Of a stretch of DNA of 46,350 bases, positions 1-45,508 are shown one piece after another. The position numbers were made by a program, and so were the translations under genes. Source of the stretch: an uncultured Candidatus Saccharibacteria bacterium (GTDB taxonomy: Bacteria; Patescibacteriota; Andersenbacteria; UBA10190); NCBI GenBank assembly GCA_964371255.1, contig CAYJKV010000002.1, positions 196,553 through 242,902 on the forward strand, written 5' to 3'. Numbering within the stretch: the first letter of the stretch is position 1; the number at the start of each line of letters is the position of its first letter. The notes under the pieces are model-generated. The model was not told the origin of the DNA and made no database searches. It worked only from the letters and a program-made list of their open reading frames with translations.

Positions 1-1163
1 ACGGCCCAAGTCCACGCTCCAAAGGCGCTCAATATGTTTAAGGCAAAAAAGACAGGCAGGATATATCTATCCCCCTTTTTCGCTCCCAGCATCATCATCA
101 CCACAAAGAAAAAGATGTACGCGGCCACCAACCACAGCGTCTTTGCTTCCTCGCTGTTAATATTATAACTCCAAGCTTCCTTCGAATTAATTGCATCATT
201 TGTCACTTTCCTTTTCCTAAGCCAGAACAGTAAAGTCATGCTTACCACGGTGGTCCCAGCTAGCCACAATGTCATCGGTGTTGAACGAGTGATAATTGTG
301 TACCAATAAAAACTGCCATTCAAAGCATACTCGCTATTCATGTTATGGGGCGTCGCCGCCGCTATGCTAAAATCTCTTTTTAAAACCAGGACGTTTCCTT
401 CAGGATTGGGTACCCACAATAAGGCCGGCCACACTATCACTACCATAATCCCAATCAGCAATAACCACGTAACGAAGTCCCTCGCTCGGTTTACCCAAAA
501 TTGCTTCTCCTGCCATTGACCCCTGCCCATAACTAGCACTACCAGTCCAAAATAAGGCAGTAAGAATACTGCCGGAGCTTTTGTTAACCCCGCCAGCGCT
601 GTCAGGAGCGCAGAGATAAACAGCCATTTGATAGAAAACCCTTGCTTGGCCCAGACCAAAATAGCCAAACCCGCTGCCATCATAAAACCTCCCAGCAAAG
701 CATCAACGTGTGTCACCCGAGAATACCCGATGATGAATGGGTCTAACGCTATCATCAGAGCCGCTAGGGCCGATACCATCCGTCTCTGGGGCCAAACTTG
801 CCGCAATAAGATATATATCACCAACACCAAAATCGCGTTGGTTATCGCCACGGGCAACTGGGTTGGTCTTATAAAATGGATCAGGTTGGCCGCCGAAAAT
901 GGGATGTGCGATCCAAGCATTTTGGCCGTCACCGTTATCCCGCCCAACCATAAAGTAGTCACGCCCGGATGCGTGGTTTGCAGCATCTCATTAAAACGCC
1001 AGTCTTTAAAAGCCCGAATAAATTCGTACGATCGACCGATCCAATTCTTCTCATCAGCCGTTAAAAACACGCCCAGGTCAATGACTCGCGGCATCATGGC
1101 CACAGCTAAAATCAACCCGGCCATGATTATCTCCCATTTTTTCTCCCTCACCAGCTGCCACAT
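1..1163 (-). CDS. GT-C fold membrane glycosyltransferase (ArnT/PMT-like, GT39/83-type). The 3' end is cut by the window edge. It is absent from the ORF track because no stop codon lies in the window.
   Basis: My own reverse-strand translation from the ATG at 1163-1161 stays open to position 1 (about 387 codons): MWQLVREKKWEIIMAGLILAVAMMPRVIDLGVFLTADEKNWIG..THPGVTTLWLGG..MLGAKKGDRYILPVFFAL. It is a clear paralog of 1864..3333 (ADEKRW, HPGITTQWLG, LGAKKGDRYLLPVFLAL) and of 12817..14949. An in-frame TAA three codons upstream of the ATG fixes the start. Confidence 0.8.
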   Translation of the reverse strand, partial: MWQLVREKKWEIIMAGLILAVAMMPRVIDLGVFLTADEKNWIGRSYEFIRAFKDWRFNEMLQTTHPGVTTLWLGGITVTAKMLGSHIPFSAANLIHFIRPTQLPVAITNAILVLVIYILLRQVWPQRRMVSALAALMIALDPFIIGYSRVTHVDALLGGFMMAAGLAILVWAKQGFSIKWLFISALLTALAGLTKAPAVFLLPYFGLVVLVMGRGQWQEKQFWVNRARDFVTWLLLIGIMVVIVWPALLWVPNPEGNVLVLKRDFSIAAATPHNMNSEYALNGSFYWYTIITRSTPMTLWLAGTTVVSMTLLFWLRKRKVTNDAINSKEAWSYNINSEEAKTLWLVAAYIFFFVVMMMLGAKKGDRYILPVFFALNILSAFGAWTWA

Positions 1164-1383: not shown

Positions 1384-1809
1384 CTATTCCCCCTCTCGGC
1401 ACCTTGCTGTCCCTCCACAAATTTCATAATTACCTTCATTCGTCACTCGCCAATCAATATTATATTCTTCATCAAAACCCGACGTGGGATCCGGTTTATT
1501 TTCCAATACGCCGCTAACGTACCAGCCAGCCGCTCCTGCCTCACTGTTTGTCACTACATATTCATACTGGCCCGTGTCCCACTGGCGCGGATACGTGGCA
1601 TACTTGTTGTAGTACATCTCAAGCGAAGTTTTTAATTTTCTTAAGTCCTCCCTGACTTGTCCGTCCCTGTTTTCCCGGCGTGCATACGCGCCGCTATAAA
1701 CTATGCCAACCGCCAGCATCAACAGGGCTATACTAATAACTAAGTATTCCCACCCGGCCACACTCATGACTTCTGCGATTTTCTTCATAACGACATTAAT
1801 TGCCGCCAC
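1384..1809 (-). CDS. Type IV pilin/pseudopilin-like protein with an atypical leader
   Basis: The N-terminal hydrophobic helix is MKKIAEVMSVAGWEYLVISIALLMLAVGIV. It is followed by a GspG/pilin-like stretch, RRENRDGQVREDLRKLKTSLEMYYNKYATYP. A Cys pair near the C-terminus (CGGTARC) resembles a pilin disulfide loop. The track start at 1809 is a GTG, and the ATG at 1788 (MKKIAEV) is the more likely start. The canonical G/FTLIE cleavage motif is not present. Confidence 0.55.
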   Translation of the reverse strand: MAAINVVMKKIAEVMSVAGWEYLVISIALLMLAVGIVYSGAYARRENRDGQVREDLRKLKTSLEMYYNKYATYPRQWDTGQYEYVVTNSEAGAAGWYVSGVLENKPDPTSGFDEEYNIDWRVTNEGNYEICGGTARCREGE

Positions 1810-1863: not shown

Positions 1864-3333
1864 ATGGTTAAAGCTGTCAAATATTTCCTTCTGCTTGTTC
1901 TTCTGCTGGTCATTTTCCTCCCTCGTGTTTTTGATTTGTCCGCTTTCCAAACCGCCGATGAGAAACGCTGGGTGACCAACACCGTCGGCTTCATTACTAA
2001 TCTAGCACATGGCGACTTATCGCACTTAATGCAGCAGCCGCATCCCGGCATCACTACCCAATGGTTAGGCGCTCCCACGGTTTTTTCTTCCTCTTGGACG
2101 ATTCGAAAACTTCCTCTGGTCTGCGCCCAATCAGCGCTTGTCTTAGTGATCGGTTATGTTTTTTGGCGTTTATTAGGACGTCGCGCCGCTGTTTTTATCA
2201 CAATTTTGCTAGCCCTCGACCCTCTACTGATCGCTCACACCCGTATTTACGCTATGGATTCTCTGCTTTCATTATTTTTAATCCTGTCTATTGCCTGGCT
2301 CTTCTTGTGGTCAAAAACTAATCGGCGCCGTTATCTAGTATTCGCCGCCCTGACCTCGGCCGCCGCTGTTCTCTCTAAACTTTCCGCTCTTATAATCATC
2401 CCCTTCAGTTTGCTATTAATTCTCTATTTATCTTATAGCCAGAGTGATCGCCAGCCTGCTTTGCCAAAGGCTATTCCCTGGCGACCATTGTTATTCTGGC
2501 TGGCCTTCTTTGTTATTGGCCTACCCTTGATTTTGCCCTCGCTCGCCTTTAATCCACAGCTGGTTATTACCGATATGATTGCTTGGTTTGCATCTGACGA
2601 TTATCAACTGCATCAAATAGGACCAACATACTATCTTGGTACACTATTTTTCTTTTCGACCCCCTTTCATTGGTTAGCCTTACCTTTACTGCCTCTGCTG
2701 CTTTTGAAAAAACCTTTCAGCCAGAGGTCGAAGCAAATACTAATCCTACTCGTATTTAGTCTGTTGTTCCTGCTTATGATGTCATTAGGCGCCAAAAAAG
2801 GCGACCGTTATCTCCTCCCTGTCTTTCTTGCTTTGGACATTATCTCCGGACTGACCGTTTCTTATCTTTTCGCCCAGGATTGGCGCCGTTTGTCCGTTAA
2901 GGTCTTCCGCCTTTCCGTCTTGGGCCTATTACTCCTGCAAATCTATCAAGTTTTTACTATCCACCCCCACACCTTGGCCTATGTCAATCCTCTGACCGTC
3001 TCGTACTTGGGCGAAAGACGTTTAGGCTGGGGCGAAGGGCTGGATTTAGCCGCCGCCTACCTTAACCAACTGCCTGACTCCAGTACGCTCACAGTCGCCT
3101 CATATTATCCCGCTGAATTTCAATCAAATTTTGTCGGCCAGACGGTTCCTATCCACCAGCATGATTCTCCCAGTGTCGATTACGTCGTCCTTTACCGCGC
3201 TATGTTTGAGCGCGGGCCCGAGGCTTGGGAAACAGACGTCGTTAACTATTACCGAAACCAAACGCCGATTCACATCATTTCCATTGGTGCCGTCCCCATG
3301 GCCTGGATTTTTCAGACAGTGAATCCAATTTGA
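1864..3333 (+). CDS. GT-C fold membrane glycosyltransferase (ArnT/PMT-like) with a C-terminal extracytoplasmic domain
   Basis: The 489-aa protein is multi-pass hydrophobic. Its first-loop acidic motif is TADEKRW, followed by HPGITTQWLG and KKGDRYLLP. The C-terminal GWGEGLDLAAAYLN..TVASYYP segment is shared with 12817..14949. Confidence 0.8.
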   Translation: MVKAVKYFLLLVLLLVIFLPRVFDLSAFQTADEKRWVTNTVGFITNLAHGDLSHLMQQPHPGITTQWLGAPTVFSSSWTIRKLPLVCAQSALVLVIGYVFWRLLGRRAAVFITILLALDPLLIAHTRIYAMDSLLSLFLILSIAWLFLWSKTNRRRYLVFAALTSAAAVLSKLSALIIIPFSLLLILYLSYSQSDRQPALPKAIPWRPLLFWLAFFVIGLPLILPSLAFNPQLVITDMIAWFASDDYQLHQIGPTYYLGTLFFFSTPFHWLALPLLPLLLLKKPFSQRSKQILILLVFSLLFLLMMSLGAKKGDRYLLPVFLALDIISGLTVSYLFAQDWRRLSVKVFRLSVLGLLLLQIYQVFTIHPHTLAYVNPLTVSYLGERRLGWGEGLDLAAAYLNQLPDSSTLTVASYYPAEFQSNFVGQTVPIHQHDSPSVDYVVLYRAMFERGPEAWETDVVNYYRNQTPIHIISIGAVPMAWIFQTVNPI

Positions 3334-4029: not shown

Positions 4030-4040
4030 CCACAACGCCT

Positions 4041-4075
4041 ACCCCCCCTCCTATAAGTTGGGGGTTTTTCTTTTT
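4041..4075 (+). terminator. Candidate rho-independent terminator after the GNAT gene
   Basis: A CCCCC/GGGGG stem (about 4044-4048 paired with 4060-4064) has an 11 nt loop and is followed by TTTTTCTTTTT. Confidence 0.45.
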
Positions 4076-4372
4076 ACTCAACCACCCTATTGAAACCTCT
4101 CGTTTAAATCTCCGACATTTAACACCTGCCTTTGGCTCCTGGACTTCATATGTTAACCAACCTTTTTCCACACTAGGACGCGACGATAGGACCTGATCAC
4201 AACGGGTAATTACACAATTGTCCTTGTCTGGATGTCATCCCTCAGGGGATGATACCAATAATGCTTTCGATGACTCCCTGATAATTATTACTATTGTCCC
4301 AGAAAACTGGTCAATCACACTATTTTTTATGGGCTTGGTATAAGCCATAAGACAGCTTATCCACAAAATAAG

Positions 4373-4413
4373 TGTCAAAACCCTTTGACAGATTTATTAT
4401 GACTGCTAATATA
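4373..4413 (+). promoter_or_regulatory. Perfect 7 bp palindrome overlapping a TTGACA box; possible operator plus orphan promoter
   Basis: TGTCAAA (4373-4379), spacer accc, then TTTGACA (4384-4390). TTGACA at 4385-4390 is followed 17-19 nt later by the AT-rich AATATA/TATATA. No ORF follows on the plus strand. Confidence 0.3.
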
Positions 4414-4542
4414 TAAGTATCGTTCCTTATAAATCTCAGTTCTCTCTCTAGAGCCTTACCCCTCCTTTCCTCTTTTTTCTCTTCTCCTCTCCTAGGCTCT
4501 TTTCTTTTTATCTAAAATAAGTGTGCCCCTTTGGGACCGCGC

Positions 4543-4768
4543 ATTTTGCAAGAAAAACAACCCTGCCTACCGGCAGGCAGGCCCGCACTAACATGGCCGT
4601 TCTAGCACTTTTTGTATAAATAACCATTAAGTTTATTAAAGACCTTGCGCTACGCGCAGCGTAGCGCCATTAACTTCCTCGCCATGTTTAGTGCTGGGGT
4701 AAATCCATCTCCAAAATGAATTAAACCGCCGCAGGCGGTTAATGAATTTTGCAAGCCAAACAACCCTG
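4543..4768. repeat. Hairpin-rich and repeat-rich non-coding segment
   Basis: A 23 nt direct repeat, ATTTTGCAAG(AA/CC)AAACAACCCTG, occurs at 4543-4565 and 4746-4768. There are three perfect hairpins: 4562-4577 (CCTGCC tacc GGCAGG), 4647-4667 (GCGCTACGC gca GCGTAGCGC) and 4724-4740 (AACCGCC gca GGCGGTT). A long-range inverted repeat pairs 4585-4597 with 4681-4694. Confidence 0.6.
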
Positions 4769-4899
4769 TGGGTAGGTCGGCTTGCCTGCCGAGCGAAGTG
4801 GATAACATATAATTCGAGTCAGCCGCACATTTGGTCGCGCCAAAACACCGCTCAAATTATAACATTTGCGTTACTTGTTTTTGTTCTGATCTAGACGTC

Positions 4900-6412: not shown

Positions 6413-8269
6413 TCACTTTATTTGTTTCTGCCACAGTTTTAGCGCAATTAATGTCCACAATTTCTTGCGGTTGTCGGCCCGGCCTCGCTGATGCATAGCT
6501 AAAAGGTTCTCTACAACTTTTGGTTTAAACATTGCCGCCCCAGCCTGATCTTGTTTCACTAACAAATCCGTCGTCCATCCATTAAGCTCCCCCCTCAACC
6601 AATGACCTAGCGGCATCGCGAAACCTTGTTTGCGTCGATCAATAATACTATCCGGTATTCTTCCTCGCATAATTCGTCTTAATAATCGCTTGTCTTTCTT
6701 TAATTCAATTGGCAACTGCATAATAAATTCCGCCAAGTCCACATCCAAAAATGGCGTTCGAGCCTCCAGCCCGTAGGCCATCGACGCTCGATCAAGCTTA
6801 ACCAAGATATCGTTCTGCAGATAATCCTTTACAATTTGCGCCGACATAGCGTCCCACCAGTGTAAACTGCTAAAACCCTCAGCCCGCCCTATCACTGCTC
6901 GCCACGCTTCTTGGGCCAACTCCCAGTATTCTTCCGTCAGCAAACTTTTTAGCTCTTCGCCACTAAATGATCCCAGCCACGCTTGTTGCCGTTGGGGTCG
7001 CGGCCAGCCTAGACCTCGTAAAAAAGATTTAATTTTAAAATCCCACGTAAAGTAGTCATACCCGGTTGGCAAAGTCTTGCTTATATTCTCTCCAATCTGC
7101 CACCATGATCGCGGTAATGAGGGTAATTTCTCTGCCCATGCTGCGGCCTCAAAAACACCATATCCACCCAACAACTCATCACTGCCATCCCCATCCAGCA
7201 CCACCGGCAACTCCTTACTCGCCATATCACACACGGCCAGCGTGGGCAATAAGGAGGAATCTCCCAGCGGAACATCCATCTGTTCTAAACGATCGCAGTA
7301 ATATTTAAATTCTGCTATGCCAAAATCACGATGGTGGTGCCTGGTACCGAGCACGCTGGCTGCTTGCTGCGCATAACCTGCCTCGTTAAACATATTTTCC
7401 TCAAATCCGATAGAAAATGAATGTAGTTCTGTCGTATTAATACTCTTCATATACCAACCAACCGCCGTGGAGTCGATGCCGCCGCTTAACAGCAAACCAA
7501 CTGGCACGTCTGCCACCAGACGTCGCTGGACTGATTGTCTCATTAAGTGATCAAACTTTTCGGCCGCATCTTTTTCTGCGATGACTGTCTTGGGCTCAAA
7601 GCACGCCTTCCACCATTGCGTAATCTTCATTCCCCGGGCGCTAACCTTTGCCCAGCATCCCATCGGCAGCTGCCAAACGCCCTCCCACCCAGTTTCAGGC
7701 TCTGGCACATATTCATAAATCAAATAACTGATCACTGCCTTTTTACTCATCGTTAATTTGACCATTGGATGTTCTGCTAGGGCTTTAATTTCCGACGCAA
7801 ACAGCAAAATATTTTTGTCTTGCCAATAATATAGCGGCTTTTTCCCGAAAGCATCTCTCGCCAACATCACTTCTTGCTTCTCCTGGTCCCATAAAGCCAA
7901 CGCGAACATCCCCTTCAGTTCCGACAAAATATTAGGCCCTTGTCGTATTAGTAGGTTCAACAAAACCTCTGTATCGGAGGTTGATCTGAAAACAATGCCG
8001 CGACAGTACTTTTCCCTCAGCGCAGAATAGTTATAAATCTCGCCATTAAACACCAAATGGTACCGTCCATCTGGCGTTGCCATTGGCTGTGCCCCAGCCG
8101 CTGACAAATCGATTATCGATAGTCTGGCATGGCCCAATCCAGCCGCCCCCTGAACCCAAATCTTACTGTCATCCGGACCACGATGCTTGACCCTGTCCGT
8201 CATCCGCTGCAATACCTGAGCATCAACTTCCTCCCTCCGCCAATCAATGATACCTGTTATGCCGCACAT
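6413..8269 (-). CDS. Asparagine synthase (glutamine-hydrolysing) family amidotransferase
   Basis: The N-terminal MCGITG provides the Cys2 Ntn-glutaminase nucleophile. A PP-loop LLLSGGIDST is present. The 618 aa length is typical of AsnB-type enzymes. Confidence 0.85.
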   Translation of the reverse strand: MCGITGIIDWRREEVDAQVLQRMTDRVKHRGPDDSKIWVQGAAGLGHARLSIIDLSAAGAQPMATPDGRYHLVFNGEIYNYSALREKYCRGIVFRSTSDTEVLLNLLIRQGPNILSELKGMFALALWDQEKQEVMLARDAFGKKPLYYWQDKNILLFASEIKALAEHPMVKLTMSKKAVISYLIYEYVPEPETGWEGVWQLPMGCWAKVSARGMKITQWWKACFEPKTVIAEKDAAEKFDHLMRQSVQRRLVADVPVGLLLSGGIDSTAVGWYMKSINTTELHSFSIGFEENMFNEAGYAQQAASVLGTRHHHRDFGIAEFKYYCDRLEQMDVPLGDSSLLPTLAVCDMASKELPVVLDGDGSDELLGGYGVFEAAAWAEKLPSLPRSWWQIGENISKTLPTGYDYFTWDFKIKSFLRGLGWPRPQRQQAWLGSFSGEELKSLLTEEYWELAQEAWRAVIGRAEGFSSLHWWDAMSAQIVKDYLQNDILVKLDRASMAYGLEARTPFLDVDLAEFIMQLPIELKKDKRLLRRIMRGRIPDSIIDRRKQGFAMPLGHWLRGELNGWTTDLLVKQDQAGAAMFKPKVVENLLAMHQRGRADNRKKLWTLIALKLWQKQIK

Positions 8270-8285: not shown

Positions 8286-9029
8286 TTAAATCCGTAATTT
8301 GTTAAACACAGTATTCGGTATAATCTTTATTGCTAACATGATCCATCGCCAAAACCACGGCGTATAAATTACAAAAATCTTCCGGTCAACAGCGCGCACT
8401 ATATCCCGCGCCACTTTTTCCGGCGCAGCCCACAACCATCCCCGCCGATCGGTCCCGTCAGTCATCGGCGTAATGACATACCCCGGCTTAATCGTAATGA
8501 CCGTTATTCCTTCCTTCGTTAACCGATGACGCATTCCCGCCGCCCAAATAGCTAAGGCGCCCTTCGCCGCACCATACACGTAAATGCTCTGCCGTCCCCG
8601 ATCACCGGCCACCGAGCTGATCACTGCTATCGTTCCTTGCCCTCGCTCCACCATCCTTTTGGCAGCCAGTTCCATAATCGCCGCGGCGCCGGTAAAGTTT
8701 GTCATAATTATTTTTTCTGCCATTGCCCATTGACGCTCTGCCACTGCCTGTTCTCCTAAATATCCCTGGGCTACCAATAAAACATCGATGCTGCCCATCT
8801 CTTTAATTACTTGCCCTATCAACCTCTCCAGATGCGTTGTTTCGCTTAAATCCAGTCCCTTGCTCCAGACCTCTGCCGCTCCCCGCACTTTTAAGTCATT
8901 AGCTACTGCCTGGGCTTTTTTTTCGTCCTTATCAACGATATATATGCGGTAACCACGGTTTGCCCATAGTCTGGCCGCTTGTGCCGCAATCGCCGATCCA
9001 CCCCCAGTAATGAGGACATTTATTGCCAT
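8286..9029 (-). CDS. dprE2: Short-chain dehydrogenase, DprE2-like (polyprenyl-phospho-2-keto-pentofuranose reductase)
   Basis: The Rossmann motif is ITGGGSAIA and the catalytic motif is YGAAKGAL. From memory, the C-terminal tail LWAAPEKVA..RWIMLAIKIIPNTVFNKLRI resembles the Rv3791 tail. The gene lies directly downstream of the DprE1-like gene. Confidence 0.7.
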   Translation of the reverse strand: MAINVLITGGGSAIAAQAARLWANRGYRIYIVDKDEKKAQAVANDLKVRGAAEVWSKGLDLSETTHLERLIGQVIKEMGSIDVLLVAQGYLGEQAVAERQWAMAEKIIMTNFTGAAAIMELAAKRMVERGQGTIAVISSVAGDRGRQSIYVYGAAKGALAIWAAGMRHRLTKEGITVITIKPGYVITPMTDGTDRRGWLWAAPEKVARDIVRAVDRKIFVIYTPWFWRWIMLAIKIIPNTVFNKLRI

Positions 9030-9047
9030 AATATAAACAAAATCACA

Positions 9048-10379
9048 TTATTTATGATGTACGTTCCCTACTACCCGTCGCCAAAAGCTAGAACTTATCT
9101 TTGGATCAATATGTTTTTCAAATAAACGCCAGTTGGGAAAAGATGACTGATACATGCTCGGCGACATCCGACTATCTTTAGAAGGATTAACCGCACCGCC
9201 ATGACTCATCACCAGTTCGTCCAGTTCATCCAACAGCTGCCTTGTTCGCAGCCTAACATTCATAAAGTCAATTGCTAAGACCAATCCGGGCCGTGGGAAC
9301 GATAACAAACCCGGCGATTTCACTTCCCCAAAATACTTCAGGGTTGATAAAAAGGACGCCTGCTCAGACGATGCCACTCTTGTTAATACTTCTTTAATCA
9401 CTGCTTCACATTTGTCACGCGGGATAACCACCTGGTACTGCAAAAAGCCGATTTTACCGTATACTAACTTCCAATCATCGACCACATCAAGCGGATAAAA
9501 GAATTTGTTGAAATGTACCTGCTTAAATGTTTTTGCACCAATACTTTTACGAAAAAACATTTCATTAAAAGCCCTCACGCTCCATTTATTTATCAGTTGG
9601 GGGGGGCCCGCTATCGGCCATCTGCCTTTTGCCCTATACCAGCTGCGCCATTCAGTTAAATCACTTGGCTGTCTGGCGTGGTTGCCGCGCATAAATAATC
9701 CACGTCCTAATTTCTTTCCCTTCGCCTGGCAGTCCAGCCAGGCCACAGTGTAATCAAAAGTTTTGTCTGATTCATCCGCTAAACCGAAAAAATCATCAAT
9801 GTTAGTCATTTTTATCACTTCTTCATCAATCAAAGGGCTAACAACTGGCACTAACTGTATTTCCGCCCACAAAATTACTCCGGTTAACCCCAGTCCGCCG
9901 ATCGTCGCTTGATATAGTTCCTGGTTTTTCTGCATTGAACATTCTATCTCTTCACCCGTGGATCGCAAAAGACCAAAACGCCCTACGTGACAGCCAAACG
10001 TTCCAGCCCGATGATGATTTTTGCCATGCACGTCGTTGGCAATCGCCCCCCCCACTGTCACGTACTTTGTGCCTGGAGTGACAGGCAAAAACCAACCGTA
10101 TGGTAATACCAGCTTTAATATATCGGCCAGGGTTACTCCAGCCTCACACGTTACTCTCCCCAGACTCGAATTCCACTCCACGAACCTATTCATCGCCCGT
10201 ATGTCCATCAAAGTCCCGTGATCATTCAAGCAAACATCACCTTGACTACGCCCTGCGCCGCGCGGTAAGCATGTTGCTTTCCCTCTGAAGATCTGCCTAA
10301 CGTCATCCGGCCAATAGATATTATTAATCTTTTGTGCGTCAGCGTTGGGATAATTACCCCAAGACTGGTAACTATTCAT
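9048..10379 (-). CDS. dprE1: FAD-dependent oxidase, DprE1-like (polyprenyl-phospho-ribose 2'-oxidase)
   Basis: By eye, several blocks match M. tuberculosis DprE1: GAGRSQGD, PGTKYVTVGGAIANDVHGKNHHRAGTFG, GFLQYQVVIP, SFLSTLKYFG, LLSFPRPG and SKDSRMS. Confidence 0.8.
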   Translation of the reverse strand: MNSYQSWGNYPNADAQKINNIYWPDDVRQIFRGKATCLPRGAGRSQGDVCLNDHGTLMDIRAMNRFVEWNSSLGRVTCEAGVTLADILKLVLPYGWFLPVTPGTKYVTVGGAIANDVHGKNHHRAGTFGCHVGRFGLLRSTGEEIECSMQKNQELYQATIGGLGLTGVILWAEIQLVPVVSPLIDEEVIKMTNIDDFFGLADESDKTFDYTVAWLDCQAKGKKLGRGLFMRGNHARQPSDLTEWRSWYRAKGRWPIAGPPQLINKWSVRAFNEMFFRKSIGAKTFKQVHFNKFFYPLDVVDDWKLVYGKIGFLQYQVVIPRDKCEAVIKEVLTRVASSEQASFLSTLKYFGEVKSPGLLSFPRPGLVLAIDFMNVRLRTRQLLDELDELVMSHGGAVNPSKDSRMSPSMYQSSFPNWRLFEKHIDPKISSSFWRRVVGNVHHK

Positions 10380-10380
10380 A

Positions 10381-11826
10381 CTAAATCGCTAATAAGGCTA
10401 AAATTATCGTCAATCCGATAATCCAATAATATATTGGGTCTCTTATAATATACATCACGGGATCACTATCTATCCTCCCTCGATATGCATTAAGCCAGCC
10501 TCGACTTACGCCATACAGCAGCAATAGAGCCACCAGCCACCAATAACCTGGGTGCCGGTATAATCTAGTAACTTGGGTGCTATTCAAATATAGGGCCATC
10601 ACTAATACGCCAAGATAGCCGCTTGTTATGCCCATTTGCCCCACTAAAGCCATGTCAGTTTTGTTATAACCGCGTCCGGATATATTCCCATTAGCTACCT
10701 CTAACTTCACTTGATATAACTCAATATATCTTTTCATTAAGGCACCACTTAATGCCAAAAATAAAATCAAGGCCATCAACCAATCCGATAAAACAACACT
10801 TGCAGCTGCTCCTCCTGCCATCACCCTTATTCCATATAAGACAGCGAGCAAAATAACGTCCAGCACCGCGACTTGCTTGGCTCCAAAAGAATAGATGATG
10901 TTCAAAATAAAATAGCACGCCATTATCCGAATAAATTCAAAGTTGTATTGCGCGGCGATTAACATCGCCCCGCCTAACAACAGCCCAACCAAAGTCATCG
11001 CCTGTTCAACCGATAACTGCCCCGCGGCCAACGGTCTATATTTTTTTACCGGATGGCGACGGTCGGCCTCCAAATCAAACATGTCATTAATCAAATAGAT
11101 CGCTGACGCCATCAAGCTGAATATCACTATTGCTCCCCCGACGCGCACTCCCACTGATAAACTGATTTGATGGTCCGCCAGCATGGGAATGAGCAACAAC
11201 AAATTTTTTACCCAATGATGAGGACGCATCGCTTTCCCGACTGTTCTAAACCATTGCGCCTGTGTCGGCCATACCCTTCCCAGACGCGCCACCTTTACTA
11301 TTCGCCCGCGTAATCGTCTACTATTAGTCACGACGTGGGCGACATAAGCTTTCTCCCAGACGGCTAAATCTCGTCGACTATTGCCAATGTATTCAAAACC
11401 GCGGGCACCAAATTTATTAATTAAGGCGTTTGCCTTGTTTCTACCTGATAAATTTGTTCCGTCCGAACTGCCCATTACCCCAGTAAACACCGTCAGGTGA
11501 TTCGCTACTTGACGCGCGACTCGGCTGTCGCTGGCCGTTACCAGCCATAACTCTCTGCCCAGCTTTTTCTGTCTCTTTAGAAAATCAAGCACCGCTGGAT
11601 TATAAGGTAGCGTCTCAACACTGATTTGTACGTGGCTTGTTATCTGTTCTTTAAAATAAGCCTTCCCTCTCCTTAACCACCAGATACTTTTTATTATCGC
11701 ACCAGCATCGCGTCTAACTAGGCGCAACCATAACTCAATGAGGGTATCTGTTTTTACTAAAGTACCATCTAAATCGACGGCAATCGGTTTATTCCCATTA
11801 ACCTGCGGCGACGGATGATCAGCCAT
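10381..11826 (-). CDS. Fusion of an N-terminal HAD phosphatase with a C-terminal UbiA-family polyprenyl-phosphate phosphoribosyltransferase (Rv3806c-like)
   Basis: HAD motifs are present: I VDLDGTL, II LVTASD and IV IGNSRRD. The UbiA domain begins near residue 200 and carries the Asp-rich motif YLINDMFDLEADRRHPVKKYRPLAAG plus about 8 TM segments. Confidence 0.8.
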   Translation of the reverse strand: MADHPSPQVNGNKPIAVDLDGTLVKTDTLIELWLRLVRRDAGAIIKSIWWLRRGKAYFKEQITSHVQISVETLPYNPAVLDFLKRQKKLGRELWLVTASDSRVARQVANHLTVFTGVMGSSDGTNLSGRNKANALINKFGARGFEYIGNSRRDLAVWEKAYVAHVVTNSRRLRGRIVKVARLGRVWPTQAQWFRTVGKAMRPHHWVKNLLLLIPMLADHQISLSVGVRVGGAIVIFSLMASAIYLINDMFDLEADRRHPVKKYRPLAAGQLSVEQAMTLVGLLLGGAMLIAAQYNFEFIRIMACYFILNIIYSFGAKQVAVLDVILLAVLYGIRVMAGGAAASVVLSDWLMALILFLALSGALMKRYIELYQVKLEVANGNISGRGYNKTDMALVGQMGITSGYLGVLVMALYLNSTQVTRLYRHPGYWWLVALLLLYGVSRGWLNAYRGRIDSDPVMYIIRDPIYYWIIGLTIILALLAI

Positions 11827-12797
11827 AACGCTCCTCCTAACCCCAAACCAACAGCCCCCGCTGCTGCGCCGATAATGTATGCCGATGGTATTTTATCAGG
11901 ATTATTTTCATTATTAGTAACAGTTGGTTTGAGCCCACTTTTCAGCAGCGCATTATCCGTTCTCTCAAAACTTAGCACCTGGCTCGCCGCTAAGGTCTTA
12001 CCATCAACACTAACTGCTGCAGCATAAATTTTATAGCTGCCAGTGTCAAGCGTGTCACCACTGACATATATAAACCGTCCCGTCATGTCTGTCCGCGTTA
12101 CCCATAACTTATTTTCTCCGCCAATCATTATTAAAGCCACTAAACTGTTATTCGGACCGGTCCCAGTGACCGTTAACCGCTCTTGGTCCCCGCTATCGCC
12201 CAGCCTTAAACCTGTCACTAAGTAAATATCATCACCAACACCGCTTGGCTCTGTATATGTTATTTTGTCACCAGGAGAAGGTATTAGAGGATTGTAGCCC
12301 CGTACAACTTCAATCCCGTCTGCATAACCATCATGATCCGTATCTGGATCATTAGCATTAGTCATTAAGTTTATTTCATCGCTATCACTCAGTCCGTCCT
12401 GATCGCGGTCCAAGCTGCTTGCCAACAAGGGGAAAGGCAGATCTGACACTTGTACTGCCGGTGCGACTGAAATTGCTGGACTAGGTAACACGCTCGCCGC
12501 ATTTCTGCTCTCCATCAGCTGCTGCACCAAATTTACATTGCCTGTTCGCTGGGCTGCCTCCAAGGCCCGCTGATAACTGTCTATCAGTTCATTACTTGCC
12601 TTATCTTCTGCCCCTGGTACAACCACCTGTTGCGTCGCTGCTTCCGGCTGTACCTCATCATGTACATCAAAATCATCGTGCGCCAGCACACCCGTCGCTA
12701 CCACTAATCCGCCTCCGATAATAATTAGTCGCCATTTTATCACTCCTTCATTATGGCGCCGAAAAGCCATACCGCCAAATTCGGTTCCTACTACCAT
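11769..12797 (-). CDS. Secreted, C-terminally anchored surface protein with thrombospondin type-3-like calcium-binding repeats
   Basis: A signal-like N-terminus runs from MAFRRH..IIIGGGLVVATGVLA. Asp-rich repeats DRDQDGLSDSDE..NDPDTDHDGYADG are followed by a beta-rich domain. A C-terminal TM helix carries an RRRR tail. The 3' end overlaps the downstream gene by 58 nt. Confidence 0.6.
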   Translation of the reverse strand: MVVGTEFGGMAFRRHNEGVIKWRLIIIGGGLVVATGVLAHDDFDVHDEVQPEAATQQVVVPGAEDKASNELIDSYQRALEAAQRTGNVNLVQQLMESRNAASVLPSPAISVAPAVQVSDLPFPLLASSLDRDQDGLSDSDEINLMTNANDPDTDHDGYADGIEVVRGYNPLIPSPGDKITYTEPSGVGDDIYLVTGLRLGDSGDQERLTVTGTGPNNSLVALIMIGGENKLWVTRTDMTGRFIYVSGDTLDTGSYKIYAAAVSVDGKTLAASQVLSFERTDNALLKSGLKPTVTNNENNPDKIPSAYIIGAAAGAVGLGLGGALWLIIRRRRLMGINRLPSI

Positions 12798-17665: not shown

Positions 17666-18646
17666 CTACCAATATTCATTCTTATTCTGCCGATAAAAAT
17701 CCACTGTTCTTTTTAATCCTTCGCGCAGTAATACGGTTGGCTCCCAAGTGGTAATAGCTTGGATCTTAGTGATATCCGCCACGTAATCACCTGTTTCGTT
17801 TTTTTCATAATCGGCCGGCCACGGCACATATTCCTTCTCGCCTTGACCGACCGCCTCGATCACGGCATCCACCATCTCTGTAAATGTGACCCCTTGGCCA
17901 CCACCAATATTGTACGCTTCTCCGTCCTGACCCTTTATTATTAGTCTCATCATAGCTTCGACAATATCATCTATATAGATATAATCCCTCAGCTGTTTTC
18001 CGTCGCCATAGATCTTTATTTTCTTGCCTTCCATCGCCTGCCGGATAAACCAGCCCACAATAGCGTATTTGCTGTGTTTCATTTGTTGGCGCGGCCCATA
18101 TGGGTTCGGTATCCGCAGAGACAGGCCATGGATCCCGAAGTTATGCGCATAGTATGCATAATATTTTTCACCCAACAATTTATGGATGCCATATAATGAC
18201 AGTGGCTGCGTCGCCTGGCTTTCTTTTACCGGCACCTGTTGAATTTTTCCATAGACCAGCCGTGACGAAGAAAACAAAATGCGCGCCGCCGCCGCTTTCT
18301 TTTTAACCGCCTCCAGAACAATTAGGTTGCCGCGGCCGTTAAAATCTAAATCCAGAAACGGTTTTTCTTTCGCGTCTAGATAACCCACCTGGCCAGCCAA
18401 ATGAAAAATGTAGTCCTTGCCATCGACTGCCTGTCTCACTATTTTCTCGTCAATTATATTACCGTTCACTAATTCAACGTGATCTGCAATTTCTTTGATA
18501 TTAAATTTATTCCCGCCATAGGGGGTCAACATCGCGTCTAAAATAGTGACTCGCGCCTTAGCTTCTACCAGGCGGTGCGCCAATGTACTGCCAATAAAAC
18601 CAAGGCCTCCAGTGATTAGTACATTTTTCCCCTTAAAATCATCCAT
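17666..18646 (-). CDS. Extended SDR NAD-dependent sugar epimerase/dehydratase (GalE-like 4-epimerase pattern)
   Basis: It carries ITGGLGFIGS, SSSRLVYG and YGIHKLLGE (YxxxK). The Ser/Tyr/Lys pattern looks more like GalE than RmlB, which would have TDEVYG. Confidence 0.6.
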   Translation of the reverse strand: MDDFKGKNVLITGGLGFIGSTLAHRLVEAKARVTILDAMLTPYGGNKFNIKEIADHVELVNGNIIDEKIVRQAVDGKDYIFHLAGQVGYLDAKEKPFLDLDFNGRGNLIVLEAVKKKAAAARILFSSSRLVYGKIQQVPVKESQATQPLSLYGIHKLLGEKYYAYYAHNFGIHGLSLRIPNPYGPRQQMKHSKYAIVGWFIRQAMEGKKIKIYGDGKQLRDYIYIDDIVEAMMRLIIKGQDGEAYNIGGGQGVTFTEMVDAVIEAVGQGEKEYVPWPADYEKNETGDYVADITKIQAITTWEPTVLLREGLKRTVDFYRQNKNEYW

Positions 18647-18881: not shown

Positions 18882-19856
18882 ATGAAGTCCGATTCTCAAA
18901 ACAGTCGATTGTCGTCTTATGCTCATCACAAACTCCATCACGAATGGGAGATGTTGTTCGGCGGTTTTGCTGTCTTATCCTGGTTTATCATGACTTTGGG
19001 GACATTATTTGCCGTTATACTCTCGTCCGGATTACCAGGTTGGTTTGCAGCCATCCCTGTCCCCATAACCTTGCTTCTTGGTGGCTTAATTTGGTTAATC
19101 CCGCGACACCTCATCTACGGCCGAAAGTGGACTAACTTCAAACGCCAAGTCTTCCAGGAAGACCAAATCGATTATGAGAGAAGCTTATCCTTGCAATACA
19201 GTCTGGTACAGTTTTTGCACACACCCGTCTCCAACTTTCAGACCAGGCAATCGCCAGTTTCTGGTTCGTGGTTCCCCTTCCGCGTCGAACATTTTCCCAG
19301 TGCCAGTCTGCGTTCTAGTATCACCGGACGTGTTAATTTACGATCCTTGTTCCAGGGTAGAGACATTAGAGGACTCGTGACGCCAAACCTACTTGATACC
19401 AGCACGATTATTTGGTTGAAAAACCGTGACAACAGCGCTACCTTGCGCGTTATTCTCCCCAGCATTGACGCTATTGCTCAATTGTTCTCCACAATGAAAA
19501 ATGGCTGGTTCACCGGTCATTCAGACTATGACAGAACACACTGTGACGTGGTAATTGATAATTTCGTTCTGTCTGACGAGCACTTCTATCACCTTCTCGA
19601 CCACGCTCAAACAATCGATATCCTTGACGTCTCATGCCAGCAACCTCCAGACGCCAGACCTGTCGTGGAAGTCTACGGCCAGGTCATTCAACCAGGTGTC
19701 ATCATCGGCACTGCTCTTCGCGTTTGTGATCACCCGTCATCCGATGTGCAAGTCTTCCTACCTGACGGATTCTTCACCAAGTTCACCCACACCGTCGATG
19801 GTATCATGAGAAGGGAAACCCCTGCTCCCCAACCTTCCGACAGTATAGCTGTTTGA
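18882..19856 (+). CDS. Hypothetical membrane protein: two N-terminal TM helices plus a soluble domain of about 230 aa and unknown function
   Basis: The 324-aa ORF has its own promoter, SD and terminator. The TM hairpin is FGGFAVLSWFIMTLGTLFAVIL / WFAAIPVPITLLLGGLIWLI. I recognise no family motif. Confidence 0.55.
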   Translation: MKSDSQNSRLSSYAHHKLHHEWEMLFGGFAVLSWFIMTLGTLFAVILSSGLPGWFAAIPVPITLLLGGLIWLIPRHLIYGRKWTNFKRQVFQEDQIDYERSLSLQYSLVQFLHTPVSNFQTRQSPVSGSWFPFRVEHFPSASLRSSITGRVNLRSLFQGRDIRGLVTPNLLDTSTIIWLKNRDNSATLRVILPSIDAIAQLFSTMKNGWFTGHSDYDRTHCDVVIDNFVLSDEHFYHLLDHAQTIDILDVSCQQPPDARPVVEVYGQVIQPGVIIGTALRVCDHPSSDVQVFLPDGFFTKFTHTVDGIMRRETPAPQPSDSIAV

Positions 19857-21168: not shown

Positions 21169-22134
21169 CTAAGCCTGATCCCACCCGACAGTTTCCTTTA
21201 TACTGTAGGCTTTTTTCTGTGTGTAATAAGTCTTGGCCACCACATCCGCTAATACTCCAGTTAACAGAAACTGGAAACCCAGCAAGACCAACAGCACCGC
21301 CAGCAGTGGTAAGGAGCTATTGGCAAAACCGGTTATCTTGAGCAGCCAAATTATTAAAATCGTTCCTCCTAGTAGCAAACCTGTTAGAATAAAACCGATG
21401 CCAATCGCCCCAAAAAAGTGCATCGGCCTGGCCGCGTACTGCACCCAAAATTTTACGACAATTAAATCTAAAAAGCCTTTGAGTTTCTTTTTAATAGAGT
21501 AGTTTGTCCGGCCATGTTGTCTGGAGTGATGATTAACTTCAACTTCTCCCACGCGAAAACCCTTCCATGACAGCAACGCCGTGATATAGCGGTGCATTTC
21601 ACCATACAATTCTAAATCCTCCAACGCCTCACGCCGGTATATTTTTAAACTGCATCCGTGATCATGTATTTTCTCGGCCGTCATCCACCGATGTATTAAG
21701 TTGCCGATTTTACTCAAAAACACCATTCCACCCTTATCTTTTCTATGCTTGCGCCAGCCAGAAACCACGTCCAAATCGTTATCCTGCAAATGCTTCATCA
21801 TTGATGGGATGTCTTTGGGATCGTTCTGTAAATCCGCATCCATCACGATCACGAACTCGCCTCGTGCCCGATCAAAGCCGGCTGACCAGGCGGCCGTTTG
21901 TCCAAAATTGCGTCTAAATTCTATTAATTTGATCCGGCCATCCTCCCGCACCAACTCTCGCAAAATTCTATTCGTACCGTCATCGCTGCCATCATCAATA
22001 AAAATAATTTCCCAGCCGCCATCCAGCCGATCCATGACTTCTTTTATCTTATTATAAAGAGGACGCAAGTTATCCTGCTCATTGTGCGCTGGGATCACTA
22101 AAGAATATTTCATATTATTTGCAGTATACACCAC
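21169..22134 (-). CDS. GT2-family polyprenyl-phosphate glycosyltransferase (Dpm1/GtrB/ArnC-like)
   Basis: It carries LVIPAHNE, IFIDDGSDDGT and MDADLQNDP, plus two C-terminal TM helices. The track start is a GTG, and the ATG at 22113 (MKYSLVIP) is the more likely start. Confidence 0.8.
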   Translation of the reverse strand: MVYTANNMKYSLVIPAHNEQDNLRPLYNKIKEVMDRLDGGWEIIFIDDGSDDGTNRILRELVREDGRIKLIEFRRNFGQTAAWSAGFDRARGEFVIVMDADLQNDPKDIPSMMKHLQDNDLDVVSGWRKHRKDKGGMVFLSKIGNLIHRWMTAEKIHDHGCSLKIYRREALEDLELYGEMHRYITALLSWKGFRVGEVEVNHHSRQHGRTNYSIKKKLKGFLDLIVVKFWVQYAARPMHFFGAIGIGFILTGLLLGGTILIIWLLKITGFANSSLPLLAVLLVLLGFQFLLTGVLADVVAKTYYTQKKAYSIKETVGWDQA

Positions 22135-23292: not shown

Positions 23293-24267
23293 CTAACTAT
23301 AGTGGCGATGGTTGTTTAAGTAGTTCTTCACGTAATCATCAATAGCCTCTTCCAGTACAATAAACGGCTCTTCATACCCATTTAACCTCAGCTTACTAAT
23401 ATCCGCCTGGGTAAAATCCTGATATTGTTTTTGTAACTCTGGTGGTAAATCAATATATTTAATATTAATCTCTTTCCCGACTGCTTTAAACATGGCTGCG
23501 GCTACATCATTCCAGGTTCGGGCTACTCCCGTCCCAACATTAAAGACCCCATACGCCTGCTTATTTTTCATGAAATGTAACGTTGCCGCCACCGCATCCT
23601 TAACATAAATAAAATCTCTTTTTTGCTCACCATCACCGAAATTGGGATTATTAGACTTAAAAAGCTCGATCACTCCTTCTCGCTGCATTTGCTCAAATTT
23701 TTTGGCAATCACACTTCTCATAGCACCTTTGTGATATTCATTGGGGCCAAAAACATTAAAATATCTAATACCAACAACCCGGTCCAAGTAACCGCTATCC
23801 CTCGCCCAAATGTCTACCATCAGCTTTGATCGCCCATAATCATTTAACGGTATTAACTGGTCAAATACATCGTGCGCATCGCTATATCCCAAACTTCCGT
23901 CACCATAAGTCGCCCCGCTGGAGATATATATACACCGGATAGACCGATCTACACTCCATCTAATAATCTCCTGGGTAAACGCAATATTTACATCTTCAAA
24001 TAATGACCAATCATGCTCCGTAGTCGAGGTTATCGCTGCTAAATGAAAAATCGCCTCGACGCCTGCTTGGTCAAATAACCCCTCCTTCAGATCCCGTCTG
24101 AATTCCTCACCGCTCATCAGACGTTCGTACTTGAGGGCTGATAAATTATGCTCTTTCTCATCATGGTCCAGACGATCCACAATCAACAGATCCGATCTTC
24201 CTCTTCGGTTTAGTTCACCCACCAAAGCGCTGCCGATAAACCCCGCCCCGCCTGTAATAATGATCAT
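23293..24267 (-). CDS. hldD: ADP-L-glycero-D-manno-heptose 6-epimerase
   Basis: It carries MIIITGGAGFIGS and the extended-SDR motif YGRSKL. Its length and context, downstream of gmhA/hldA/gmhB/hldC, fit HldD (RfaD). Confidence 0.75.
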   Translation of the reverse strand: MIIITGGAGFIGSALVGELNRRGRSDLLIVDRLDHDEKEHNLSALKYERLMSGEEFRRDLKEGLFDQAGVEAIFHLAAITSTTEHDWSLFEDVNIAFTQEIIRWSVDRSIRCIYISSGATYGDGSLGYSDAHDVFDQLIPLNDYGRSKLMVDIWARDSGYLDRVVGIRYFNVFGPNEYHKGAMRSVIAKKFEQMQREGVIELFKSNNPNFGDGEQKRDFIYVKDAVAATLHFMKNKQAYGVFNVGTGVARTWNDVAAAMFKAVGKEINIKYIDLPPELQKQYQDFTQADISKLRLNGYEEPFIVLEEAIDDYVKNYLNNHRHYS

Positions 24268-24352
24268 AGTAATATATTTAATCGCTCTGCCTACTCACAG
24301 CCATCTTAGCATATTCTCTCTCAGCGTAAATCACTCCTCCATTATGGGCAGT

Positions 24353-24372
24353 AAAAAAGCTGGTTTCCCAGC
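24353..24372 (-). terminator. Candidate rho-independent terminator after hldC
   Basis: On the minus strand: GCUGG-GAAA-CCAGC followed by UUUUUU. The stem is short, at 5 bp. Confidence 0.45.
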
Positions 24373-24581
24373 CCATCGGATCAAATCAGTTTTTTTATGC
24401 ACGACCATATAAAATCACATATGATCAGCACCACTGCCGCTCCGACCACGAAATTCACACACTGGTCTGTGAGTTGATTAGGCTTTTCCCTGCTCGCCTC
24501 ATCTTCATCAGTCCGCCGTATGCTGACGCATCTTTTTTTCAAACCTTTGCTCCCTTAAAAGAACATGAATCTGTCTGTCAA

Positions 24582-25100: not shown

Positions 25101-25103
25101 AAA

Positions 25104-25697: not shown

Positions 25698-25702
25698 AAC
25701 AG

Positions 25703-26773: not shown

Positions 26774-26796
26774 ACTAAATCACTTATCTATAAATG

Positions 26797-27366: not shown

Positions 27367-27426
27367 ATTGATACTTAATTATTATAATAATCTGCCCAGT
27401 ATCGGCCTTGCTCCTCAAAAATCCTT

Positions 27427-29320: not shown

Positions 29321-29330
29321 ATTTCAAATA

Positions 29331-45500: not shown

Positions 45501-45508
45501 CCTTTATT

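Follow-up and report, generated by a model that had tools for sequence, protein, structure and literature searches.

A predicted lipid-linked arabinofuranose donor module among GT-C glycosyltransferase genes in an Andersenbacteria-like genome

In Citrobacter youngae O1/O2, ORF15, a fusion of a HAD phosphoribose phosphatase and a UbiA-type polyprenyl-phosphate 5-phosphoribosyltransferase (PPPRS), converts phosphoribosyl pyrophosphate (PRPP) and polyprenyl phosphate to polyprenyl-P-ribofuranose (Kelly, Duong, Nothof, Lowary, and Whitfield, PNAS 2024; PMC11127046). The product of this architecture is undecaprenyl-P-ribofuranose, and, following the small ORF14 transporter, the GT-C transferase ORF12 (the founder of family GT136) adds the pentofuranose outside the cytoplasm (PMC11127046). 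The same PPPRS chassis feeds ribofuranose (Ribf) or xylofuranose (Xylf), a GalE-like epimerase switching the product to Xylf, and the GT-C is promiscuous; homologues of DprE1 and DprE2 go with glycans that contain arabinofuranose (Araf), and Xanthomonas and Bacillus have “more elaborate” loci, in which there is more than one epimerase or GT-C (PMC11127046). Here we describe a locus of this kind in a 46,350-nucleotide stretch of contig CAYJKV010000002.1 (the window, meaning the whole stretch analyzed), in which three adjoining genes, referred to as the trio, encode a HAD-UbiA fusion, a DprE1-like oxidase, and a DprE2-like short-chain dehydrogenase/reductase (SDR) and lie among five GT-C genes.

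Residues D18, N247, D248, D251, D255, R366, and E369 of ORF15 have been mutated, and ArnT is the closest solved relative of ORF12, which bears a C-terminal carbohydrate-binding module (PMC11127046); a commentary on three-component pentofuranose systems is also available (PMC11194591). In Pseudomonas aeruginosa Pa5196, homologues of Rv3806c, DprE1, and DprE2 are each required for D-Araf on pilin, a GtrA-like protein is dispensable, and the flippase is still unidentified (bioRxiv 10.1101/2020.04.19.049825).

For the locus in the window, we consider it likely that the trio makes polyprenyl-P-β-D-Araf in four steps and that at least one adjacent GT-C moves Araf to a surface glycan or glycoprotein. 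The argument starts from features that can be observed directly: sequence homology and domain layout, conserved catalytic residues, a gene order that recurs in other genomes, and taxonomy.

The trio and its conservation

The trio occupies three minus-strand open reading frames (ORFs) of 481 aa (10381..11826), 443 aa, and 247 aa, separated by gaps of 1 and 18 nt. The original prediction, made from the DNA alone, had placed them correctly, and every peptide that it quoted (NDMFDLEADRRHPVKKYRPLAAG, VTVGGAIANDVHGKNHH, GFLQYQVVIP, LLSFPRPG, and the tail IIPNTVFNKLRI) is present in the proteins. Profile and structure-sequence searches also bear out the homologies that it had proposed: aa 194 to 402 of the first protein align with Rv3806c (PDB 8j8j; E = 5e-31), the second aligns over its full length with the DprE1 proteins of Mycobacterium smegmatis (4aut; E = 8.5e-70) and Mycobacterium tuberculosis (E = 5e-67), and the best solved-structure match of the third is M. 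tuberculosis DprE2 (21gq_C; E = 1.7e-23), in an alignment that takes in the S-Y-K region and the unusual C-terminal tail. All of these similarities are much stronger than chance would give.

The first protein is a two-domain fusion, with a HAD phosphatase at approximately aa 15 to 190 and a UbiA-fold transferase at approximately aa 191 to 481, and it passes NCBIfam model NF006088 (PRK08238) with 526.7 bits over aa 9 to 481 (cutoff, 351). The DxDGT catalytic motif of the HAD domain begins at D18; among 60 homologues, D18, D20, K131, and D153 are invariant, and T22 and T97 are nearly so. In the UbiA domain of the window protein and its homologues, N247, D248, D251, D255, and R366 are invariant and E369 is nearly invariant. 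Both domains are visible in an AlphaFold2 model built on 60 homologues (predicted local distance difference test score [pLDDT], 92.5). Foldseek matched the N-terminal domain to SerB-like HAD phosphatases and the UbiA domain to Rv3806c (8j8j; E = 2e-11; TM-score, 0.81; root mean square deviation, 3.2 Å), with other UbiA proteins at approximately 1e-5. Against the Rv3806c-type models NF008976, NF008977, and NF008978, the protein scores 142, 117, and 149 bits, below all of the cutoffs (474, 234, and 207, respectively), and by these scores it is classed as a homologue, not an equivalog, of the decaprenyl-phosphate phosphoribosyltransferase Rv3806c. Pfam searches gave no match to a PAP2 (Rv3807c-type) phosphatase in any ORF of the window. 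As the fused HAD domain, which the original prediction had overlooked, would supply the dephosphorylation step, three genes suffice for the pathway.

The DprE1-like protein scores 343.5 bits against the DprE1 model NF053785 (cutoff, 500), and the family that scores next, that of the sugar-lactone oxidases, reaches only 51 bits. For residue comparisons, 52 DprE1 homologues from the GTDB loci compared below were aligned with the M. tuberculosis sequence, and the numbering was checked at Y60, H132, K134, C387, and K418. G117, H132, K134, Q334, Q336, K367, and K418 (M. tuberculosis numbering) are invariant in the 52 homologues and conserved in the window protein. The benzothiazinone-reactive Cys387 of M. 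tuberculosis (PGWNICVDF) pairs with Ala369 (PGLVLAIDF) in the HMMER alignment, as had been proposed by eye. The substitution is not a peculiarity of this sequence, as Ala occupies the position in 50 of the 52 homologues and is the norm for almost the whole non-actinobacterial family; its presence implies insensitivity to covalent benzothiazinones. Overall, the window protein is 34.7% identical to M. tuberculosis DprE1, compared with 41 to 52% identity to homologues in non-actinobacterial trio loci.

The SDR, the predicted 2′-keto reductase, passes NF005489 (PRK07102) with 280.3 bits (cutoff, 267) and falls below the DprE2 model NF053786 (159 bits; cutoff, 250). Models NF006088 and NF005489 bear no functional name, so passing them places a protein in a family and assigns no chemistry. 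On this basis, the trio proteins are taken to be members of sister families rather than equivalogs of the mycobacterial enzymes.

The source of the window is a “Candidatus Andersenbacteria”-like bacterium of the candidate phyla radiation (CPR), as indicated by LepA and synteny, in agreement with the earlier suggestion of a CPR-like lineage. All taxon-named matches of LepA (32377..34239) are “Candidatus Andersenbacteria” (62 to 65% identity), and unnamed relatives are 70 to 87% identical. Two GenBank Andersenbacteria assemblies (GCA_001001305.1 and GCA_001817145.1) hold a 68%-identical orthologue of the GT-C upstream of the trio, and the whole neighborhood is syntenic in both, in the order heptose genes, RmlA, GT2, GT4, epimerase, GT-C, GT-C, TSP3-like, PPPRS, DprE1, DprE2, AsnB, GT-C, GNAT. 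The same core block is found in metagenomic relatives whose PPPRS proteins are 53% and 68% identical to that of the window, and the window sequence itself recurs across many ENA assemblies. This block of approximately 11 genes has been public in GenBank Andersenbacteria genomes since 2015-2016, under generic names only, and a search of the available paper collection gave no report tying CPR bacteria or Patescibacteria to DprE1 or arabinosyltransferases.

Beyond the CPR, the HAD-UbiA fusion is present in at least several hundred species genomes from many phyla. A word-indexed protein search with the PPPRS retrieved at least 316 proteins at E values below 1e-10, with named sources in Paraburkholderia, Xanthomonas, Stenotrophomonas, Bryobacteraceae, Syntrophobacteria, Humisphaera, and “Candidatus Andersenbacteria.” When a single genome from each GTDB species was scanned by pattern, at least 570 relatives were confirmed, and DprE1 homologues (39 to 46% identity) occur on 65 plasmids, mostly rhizobial. 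With so many relatives, the claim that homologues outside the mycolata are confined to a few special cases does not hold. Locus comparisons in this study use the best 80 of the at least 570 relatives, all of them full-length fusions, from Pseudomonadota, Acidobacteriota, Nitrospirota, Bacteroidota, Planctomycetota, Verrucomicrobiota, and CPR groups; 72 have enough flanking DNA to be evaluated. DprE1 and DprE2 homologues share the PPPRS locus in 45 of these 72, and in nearly all of the 45 they lie immediately downstream of the PPPRS gene, with strand and order conserved. A small ORF with three or four transmembrane (TM) segments adjoins the synthase more often in the 27 loci that have the PPPRS only. 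Conservation of the PPPRS-DprE1-DprE2 order across phyla, and in relatives at 53 to 68% PPPRS identity, implies selection for the module.

In a rough, star-like neighbor-joining tree of PPPRS proteins (no support values), the window clade forms its own branch and other CPR copies (from Peribacteria, Saccharibacteria, and a second Andersenbacteria lineage) are scattered, a pattern that hints weakly at non-monophyly of the CPR copies and several acquisitions. Two metagenome-assembled genomes labeled “uncultured Bifidobacterium sp.” (loci L016 and L082) contain a HAD-PPPRS/DprE1/DprE2 trio with approximately 42 to 43% identity to that of the window; they could represent an actinobacterial host outside the Corynebacteriales or a binning artifact. 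A search of a phage collection gave one weak match, to the UbiA domain only.

GT-C transferases, predicted pathway, and alternatives

The presence of five GT-C genes around the trio (Table 1), as originally predicted, is confirmed by Pfam matches and paralogy. The 710-aa GT-C, two genes upstream of the PPPRS gene in a position kept in relatives, is a candidate user of the lipid-linked donor. Its AlphaFold2 model (pLDDT, 91.4) has ArnT as the best Foldseek match (5f15; E = 3e-8), followed in rank by AglB, ALG12, OST, Pmt4, AftD, Emb, and AftA, and the D24-E25 motif after its first TM helix is invariant in 62 homologues. The adjoining 887-aa GT-C has an N-terminal extracytoplasmic domain (aa 33 to 138) that resembles the C-terminal β-sandwich (aa 563 to 666) of its 710-aa neighbor (blastp E = 7e-12). 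The same putative carbohydrate-binding module thus stands at opposite ends of two adjoining GT-Cs, which suggests that both bind one acceptor polymer.

The 487-aa GT-C is encoded by the last gene of a tightly spaced block, downstream of the DprE2-like and AsnB-like genes, and its orthologue in related locus L085 has both PMT and PMT_2 matches. The plus-strand GT-C and the partial GT-C at the low-coordinate end of the window carry the motifs FQTADEKRW and FLTADEKNW, respectively, the former after its first TM helix; with the 710-aa protein they form a set of three paralogues (mutual blastp E values of 1e-25 to 1e-47) that share a D-E motif just past the first TM helix. The partial ORF has seven predicted TM segments, matches its two paralogues at 1.5e-29 and 1.7e-25, and has no Pfam or NCBIfam family above threshold, so that its identity as a GT-C comes through paralogy alone. 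The 487-aa and 887-aa proteins are more divergent than the three paralogues. Pfam matches of the window GT-Cs are to PMT_2 and PMT only, with none to an Emb or Aft family, and phmmer searches with four of them against PDB sequences (Emb and Aft included) gave nothing at E values up to 0.1.

From these features we infer the chemistry, the identity of the lipid, the GT-C that uses the donor, and the acceptor. At the cytoplasmic face, the UbiA-type domain would carry out phosphoribosyl transfer, and the fused HAD domain would then strip the 5-phosphate to give polyprenyl-P-ribofuranose. The FAD enzyme would oxidize C2′ to a 2′-keto sugar, and the SDR would reduce it from the opposite face, yielding polyprenyl-P-arabinofuranose. 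After translocation by a component that would be encoded outside the window, one or more of the neighboring ArnT-like GT-Cs would put Araf on a cell-surface glycan or glycoprotein. The acceptor could be built by the rhamnose and heptose precursor genes, GT4 transferases, and WbaP/WcaJ-like initiating transferase of the window.

Several observations weigh against this reading. First, none of the three trio proteins reaches the NCBIfam equivalog cutoffs of the mycobacterial enzymes, and three ligand-contact residues of DprE1 are substituted (Y60Q, V365T, and N385V) in the window clade alone. Second, the window GT-Cs have no significant similarity to the GT-Cs beside trios or PPPRS genes in 80 other loci (best match, 4e-5 over 153 aa), and a GT2 lipid-sugar synthase in the same block could feed some or all of them. 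Third, the 46-kb window has no small ArnE/F-, EmrE-, SMR-, or GtrA-like transporter ORF: a search of stop-to-stop ORFs of 70 to 330 aa with at least three hydrophobic segments, by a crude hydropathy scan at two stringencies, gave antisense artifacts only. As the same gap exists in P. aeruginosa, the lack of a local flippase lowers the case for strict membership of the locus in the described family of systems more than it lowers the mechanistic inference. The sole MOP-superfamily protein in the window is MurJ (TIGR01695; 333 bits; cutoff, 235), which is not proposed as a pentofuranose-lipid flippase because it passes the MurJ equivalog cutoff.

The alternative that survives best, although it is unlikely, is a lipid-linked pentofuranose other than Araf: Ribf only, Xylf or lyxofuranose (through epimerization at C3 or both centers), or a stable 2-keto sugar with further modification. 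It draws on the known ability of one PPPRS chassis to feed Ribf or Xylf according to the auxiliary epimerase, with a promiscuous GT-C (PMC11127046), and on the three substituted ligand-contact positions, the DprE1 and DprE2 scores under the equivalog cutoffs, and a clade-specific, tightly linked AsnB-like gene that could share in sugar modification. Xylf systems, however, employ a GalE-like SDR rather than a DprE1/DprE2 pair (PMC11127046), the known glycans tied to DprE1 and DprE2 homologues contain Araf (PMC11127046; bioRxiv 10.1101/2020.04.19.049825), and both window proteins have full-length homology, with the Lys418, His132, and Gln334/336 motif of DprE1 intact.

Rather improbable, too, is that the Araf donor is made but the window GT-Cs use a hexose or aminosugar donor from the GT2 enzyme, the arabinosyltransferase being encoded elsewhere. 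The GT2 protein has full-length matches to ArnC and PgfS (both below cutoffs) and TM segments at aa 244 to 262 and 277 to 295, and by homology it would provide GT-Cs with a second lipid-linked sugar. Its gene heads the conserved block in relatives, and in sequence the window GT-Cs are unrelated to those encoded after DprE2 in other phyla. This dissimilarity carries little weight, as trio-adjacent GT-Cs in other phyla are very diverse and hardly cluster among themselves. Moreover, the trio has GT-C genes on either side, at gaps of ≤49 nt, an arrangement kept in relatives at 53 to 68% protein identity. The original observation that the trio sits among GT-C genes is upheld; with a second lipid-sugar synthase in the block, the five need not all be arabinosyltransferases.

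Very unlikely is a strict mycobacterial-type polyprenyl-P-arabinofuranose/arabinan pathway, from or orthologous to that of Corynebacteriales, with the five GT-Cs as Emb/Aft-like polymerases of an arabinogalactan-like wall. “Mycobacterial-type” was the label first given to the trio, and homology to Rv3806c, DprE1, and DprE2, the presence of several GT-Cs (two sharing an extra β-domain reminiscent of Emb/AftD carbohydrate-binding modules), and dTDP-rhamnose genes in the same locus agree with it. The label cannot be kept: a HAD fusion replaces the PAP2 enzyme Rv3807c, two of the proteins belong to NF006088 and NF005489 and none passes a mycobacterial cutoff, and the DprE1-like protein is closer to its non-actinobacterial trio homologues than to that of M. 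tuberculosis. Furthermore, the GT-Cs match PMT_2 and are most ArnT-like, Emb, AftA, and AftD ranking lower in the fold search, and a GtrA-like Rv3789 homologue is lacking in the window.

The notion that the trio is unrelated to pentofuranose donors, its UbiA protein being an aromatic or heme prenyltransferase and its FAD enzyme a lactone or alditol oxidase, accords with generic Pfam matches (UbiA and FAD_binding_4 only) and with the JGI annotation of homologues as “4-hydroxybenzoate polyprenyltransferase” but can be dismissed, as quinone/heme models give 26 to 45 bits (NF006088, 526; decaprenyl-phosphate phosphoribosyltransferase model, 149), the lactone model gives 51 (DprE1 model, 343), structure-sequence matches point to the mycobacterial enzymes, and Foldseek clearly prefers Rv3806c. 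Groupings of this kind, with lactone or alditol oxidases and with quinone or heme enzymes, had been named at the outset as ones that would refute the prediction, and neither is seen.

If the trio makes the Araf donor, a bolder and quite tentative proposal is that Andersenbacteria, as ultra-small CPR bacteria presumably without lipopolysaccharide, build oligo- or poly-D-Araf, an arabinan-like decoration comparable to those of mycobacteria or Pa5196 pilins, on a wall polysaccharide or surface protein (possibly the TSP3-like protein), without a dedicated small flippase. In that case, one GT-C or an unlinked protein would translocate the donor, with the three GT-Cs of the block and two nearby paralogues as the transferase set. 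D-Arabinan would then belong to the surface of an episymbiotic lineage, where it might help to determine attachment to the host or resistance to phages. To our knowledge, no surface glycan chemistry has been described for this CPR lineage. D-Arabinofuranose is best known from mycobacterial walls, and anti-lipoarabinomannan CS-35 antibodies and D-arabinan-specific hydrolases exist. The locus offers a testable prediction for an as-yet-uncultured CPR lineage, that its cell surface should carry D-arabinofuranose.

The surrounding surface-glycan locus

Table 1. Trio, GT-C, and other sugar-related features of the window
Feature	Coordinates	Strand	Basis
GT-C, fifth, partial (N-terminal 387 aa)	3..1163	-	Paralogy; runs off the low-coordinate window end
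GT-C, fourth, paralogue of the 710-aa GT-C	1864..3333	+	Pfam PMT_2 and PMT; blastp 2e-47 to the 710-aa GT-C
GT-C, third, 487 aa	4900..6363	-	Pfam PMT_2, weak (3e-4); ~8 TM predicted
AsnB-like glutamine amidotransferase	6413..8269	-	Pfam Asn_synthase and GATase; TIGR01536, 431.7 bits (cutoff, 267)
DprE2-like SDR, 2′-keto reductase (predicted)	8286..9029	-	NF005489; PDB match
DprE1-like FAD-dependent polyprenyl-P-ribose 2′-oxidase (predicted)	9048..10379	-	NF053785; PDB 4aut
PPPRS, UbiA-fold polyprenyl-phosphate 5-phosphoribosyltransferase domain	10381..11256	-	NF006088; Rv3806c structure
PPPRS, HAD phosphatase domain (phosphoribose phosphatase)	11257..11826	-	Pfam PF12710, aa 17-155, E = 7.9e-10
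Membrane-anchored TSP3-like protein	11769..12797	-	Pfam TSP3_bac (weak); TM pattern by hydropathy scan
GT-C, ArnT-like fold, C-terminal β-sandwich, 710 aa	12817..14949	-	Pfam PMT_2 and PMT; AlphaFold2/Foldseek
GT-C, second, 887 aa	14958..17621	-	Pfam PMT_2; ~13 TM (crude hydropathy scan); kept in relatives
NAD-dependent sugar epimerase/dehydratase, RmlB-like	17666..18646	-	Pfam Epimerase and GDP_Man_Dehyd
GT2 polyprenyl-phosphate glycosyltransferase, ArnC/PgfS/GtrB-like	21169..22134	-	ArnC NF007986, 158 bits; PgfS, 157 bits
RmlA (dTDP-rhamnose)	22271		Family searches
Heptose 6-epimerase	23293	-	345 bits (cutoff, 274)
Nucleotidyltransferase (heptose set)	24582	-	Family searches
GmhB-like HAD (heptose set)	25104	-	Family searches
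PfkB kinase (heptose set)	25703	-	Family searches
GmhA-like (heptose set)	26797	-	Family searches
RmlD (dTDP-rhamnose)	27427		Family searches
RmlC (dTDP-rhamnose)	31420		Family searches

From 18646 down to 4900, minus-strand genes follow one another with gaps of ≤49 nt, beginning with the RmlB-like epimerase gene. This run (epimerase, two GT-Cs, TSP3-like protein, trio, AsnB-like protein, and third GT-C) fits a single transcription unit, for which the evidence is weak. Terminator-like hairpins lie 3′ of the 487-aa GT-C gene (consensus matches only); counts in the promoter and terminator scan were near shuffled expectation, and the scan serves only as a weak hint on operon ends. The RmlB-like protein scores 181 bits against the dTDP-glucose 4,6-dehydratase model (cutoff, 365), and its position is kept in relatives.

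Two further genes of the run are conserved in this lineage. The TSP3-like protein has Asp-rich thrombospondin-type-3-like Ca-binding repeats and one TM segment at each terminus; the C-terminal segment, with RRRR after it, resembles a sorting signal. The protein could be a scaffold or acceptor. Its gene extends 58 nt into the start of the PPPRS gene and always lies between GT-C and PPPRS genes in this lineage, the orthologues of loci L085 to L092 having 319 to 329 aa. The AsnB-like gene, directly downstream of the DprE2-like gene, is likewise kept in L085 to L092 and is unlinked to the trio in the 80 GTDB loci, the linkage being found in this CPR clade only. Besides asparagine synthase, its best NCBIfam resemblance is to the XrtA/PEP-CTERM-system amidotransferase (below cutoff). 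The enzyme may amidate a glycan or wall component.

By its gene content, the rest of the window reads as a single large surface-glycan locus, with nearly every gene on the minus strand. Each 2-kb bin of the window has a strongly negative GC skew (approximately -0.17 to -0.31), which, with the near-uniform gene orientation, fits a long array of co-oriented genes on the leading strand. A full pathway for nucleotide-activated glycero-manno-heptose is clustered with transaldolase and a split transketolase on the minus strand (23293..31201). These last enzymes would provide sedoheptulose-7-P as well as ribose-5-P for PRPP, which would account for the presence of pentose-phosphate genes in a glycan locus. 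Also encoded are four GT4 transferases, a Wzz-like protein with two TM segments, a DUF4012 protein, and a WbaP/WcaJ-like initiating phosphoglycosyltransferase.

The DUF4012 protein and split transketolase had been noted at the outset, as had a divergent pilin, which is present but weak. This pilin-like ORF (1384..1809, minus strand, 141 aa) has a sub-threshold T2SSG match (E = 7e-4) and a pilin-type segment, DLRKLKTSLEMYYNKYATYP, with a non-canonical N terminus (AG/WEYLV, not the prepilin motif G/FTLIE). It is divergent from the plus-strand GT-C gene and lies in the part of the window that is non-syntenic with the Andersenbacteria reference genomes.

Other features of the window stand apart from the glycosylation genes. 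An ORF-free gap of 870 nt (4030..4899) separates the convergent GNAT and GT-C genes. Its core (4324..4563; approximately 250 nt) is 73.5% identical to the matching gap of three Andersenbacteria loci (L090 to L092) and contains a promoter-like site, TTGACA-N16-TAATAT, with a C/U-rich stretch after it. The gap holds further promoter- and terminator-like hairpins, and a 38-aa ORF is called at this position in L092. It could represent a small RNA or a very short ORF. The sole plus-strand ORF in the glycan block (18882..19856) codes for a 324-aa protein that has two N-terminal TM segments and matches no family; the ORF is missing from the same position in L085, L087, and L090, where the GT4 gene adjoins the epimerase gene. 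A class A bacterial RNase P RNA (45507..46128, minus strand; 135 bits) is 622 nt long on a 367-position model and must therefore contain large insertions.

Comparison with described pentofuranose systems

The window shares with the mycobacterial polyprenyl-P-arabinofuranose pathway an inferred stepwise chemistry, homology to Rv3806c, DprE1, and DprE2, and the catalytic residues of DprE1 and DprE2. It differs in its fused HAD domain, where mycobacteria have the PAP2 enzyme Rv3807c; in the replacement of the benzothiazinone-reactive Cys387 by Ala, of Asn385 by Val, and of Tyr60 by Gln; and in having no Emb/Aft-family match and no GtrA-like Rv3789 homologue in the window. A second system for comparison is the non-actinobacterial one of P. 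aeruginosa Pa5196/PA7 (PsPA7_6245-6249 and TfpW), which likewise combines homologues of Rv3806c, DprE1, and DprE2 with a GT-C. There, the phosphatase is separate, a GtrA-like gene is part of the cluster, and the acceptor is a group IV pilin; here, what is found beside one GT-C paralogue is only the weak, non-canonical pilin-like ORF.

The system of Kelly et al. (PMC11127046) resembles the window locus in its two-domain synthase; the catalytic residues of ORF15 recur under the same numbers in the window protein and are invariant or nearly so. The DprE1/DprE2 pair corresponds to the auxiliary epimerase of the Araf subtype, the number of GT-Cs recalls the “more elaborate” loci, and ArnT-like GT-Cs are nearby, one of them with an extra C-terminal β-domain like that of ORF12. 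In contrast, the 46 kb of the window are without a small EmrE/ArnE-like or SMR transporter gene, the five GT-Cs are dissimilar in sequence to those beside other PPPRS genes, and the operon also includes the genes for the conserved TSP3-like membrane protein and the AsnB-like amidotransferase. Since a CPR host presumably lacks lipopolysaccharide, an O antigen is excluded as the acceptor.

The locus is a DprE1/DprE2-containing version of the “three-component pentofuranose glycosylation system” (PMC11127046), here in a CPR bacterium. The module was already described in 2024 and is widespread in bacteria, and its known chemistry is unchanged. Of interest are the host, by which the PPPRS/DprE1/DprE2 module of Kelly et al. 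(PMC11127046) is extended to Patescibacteria, and a conserved variant of the operon, in which the trio is accompanied by more than one ArnT-like GT-C, by the anchored TSP3-like protein, and by the AsnB-like amidotransferase, and a small transporter is lacking.

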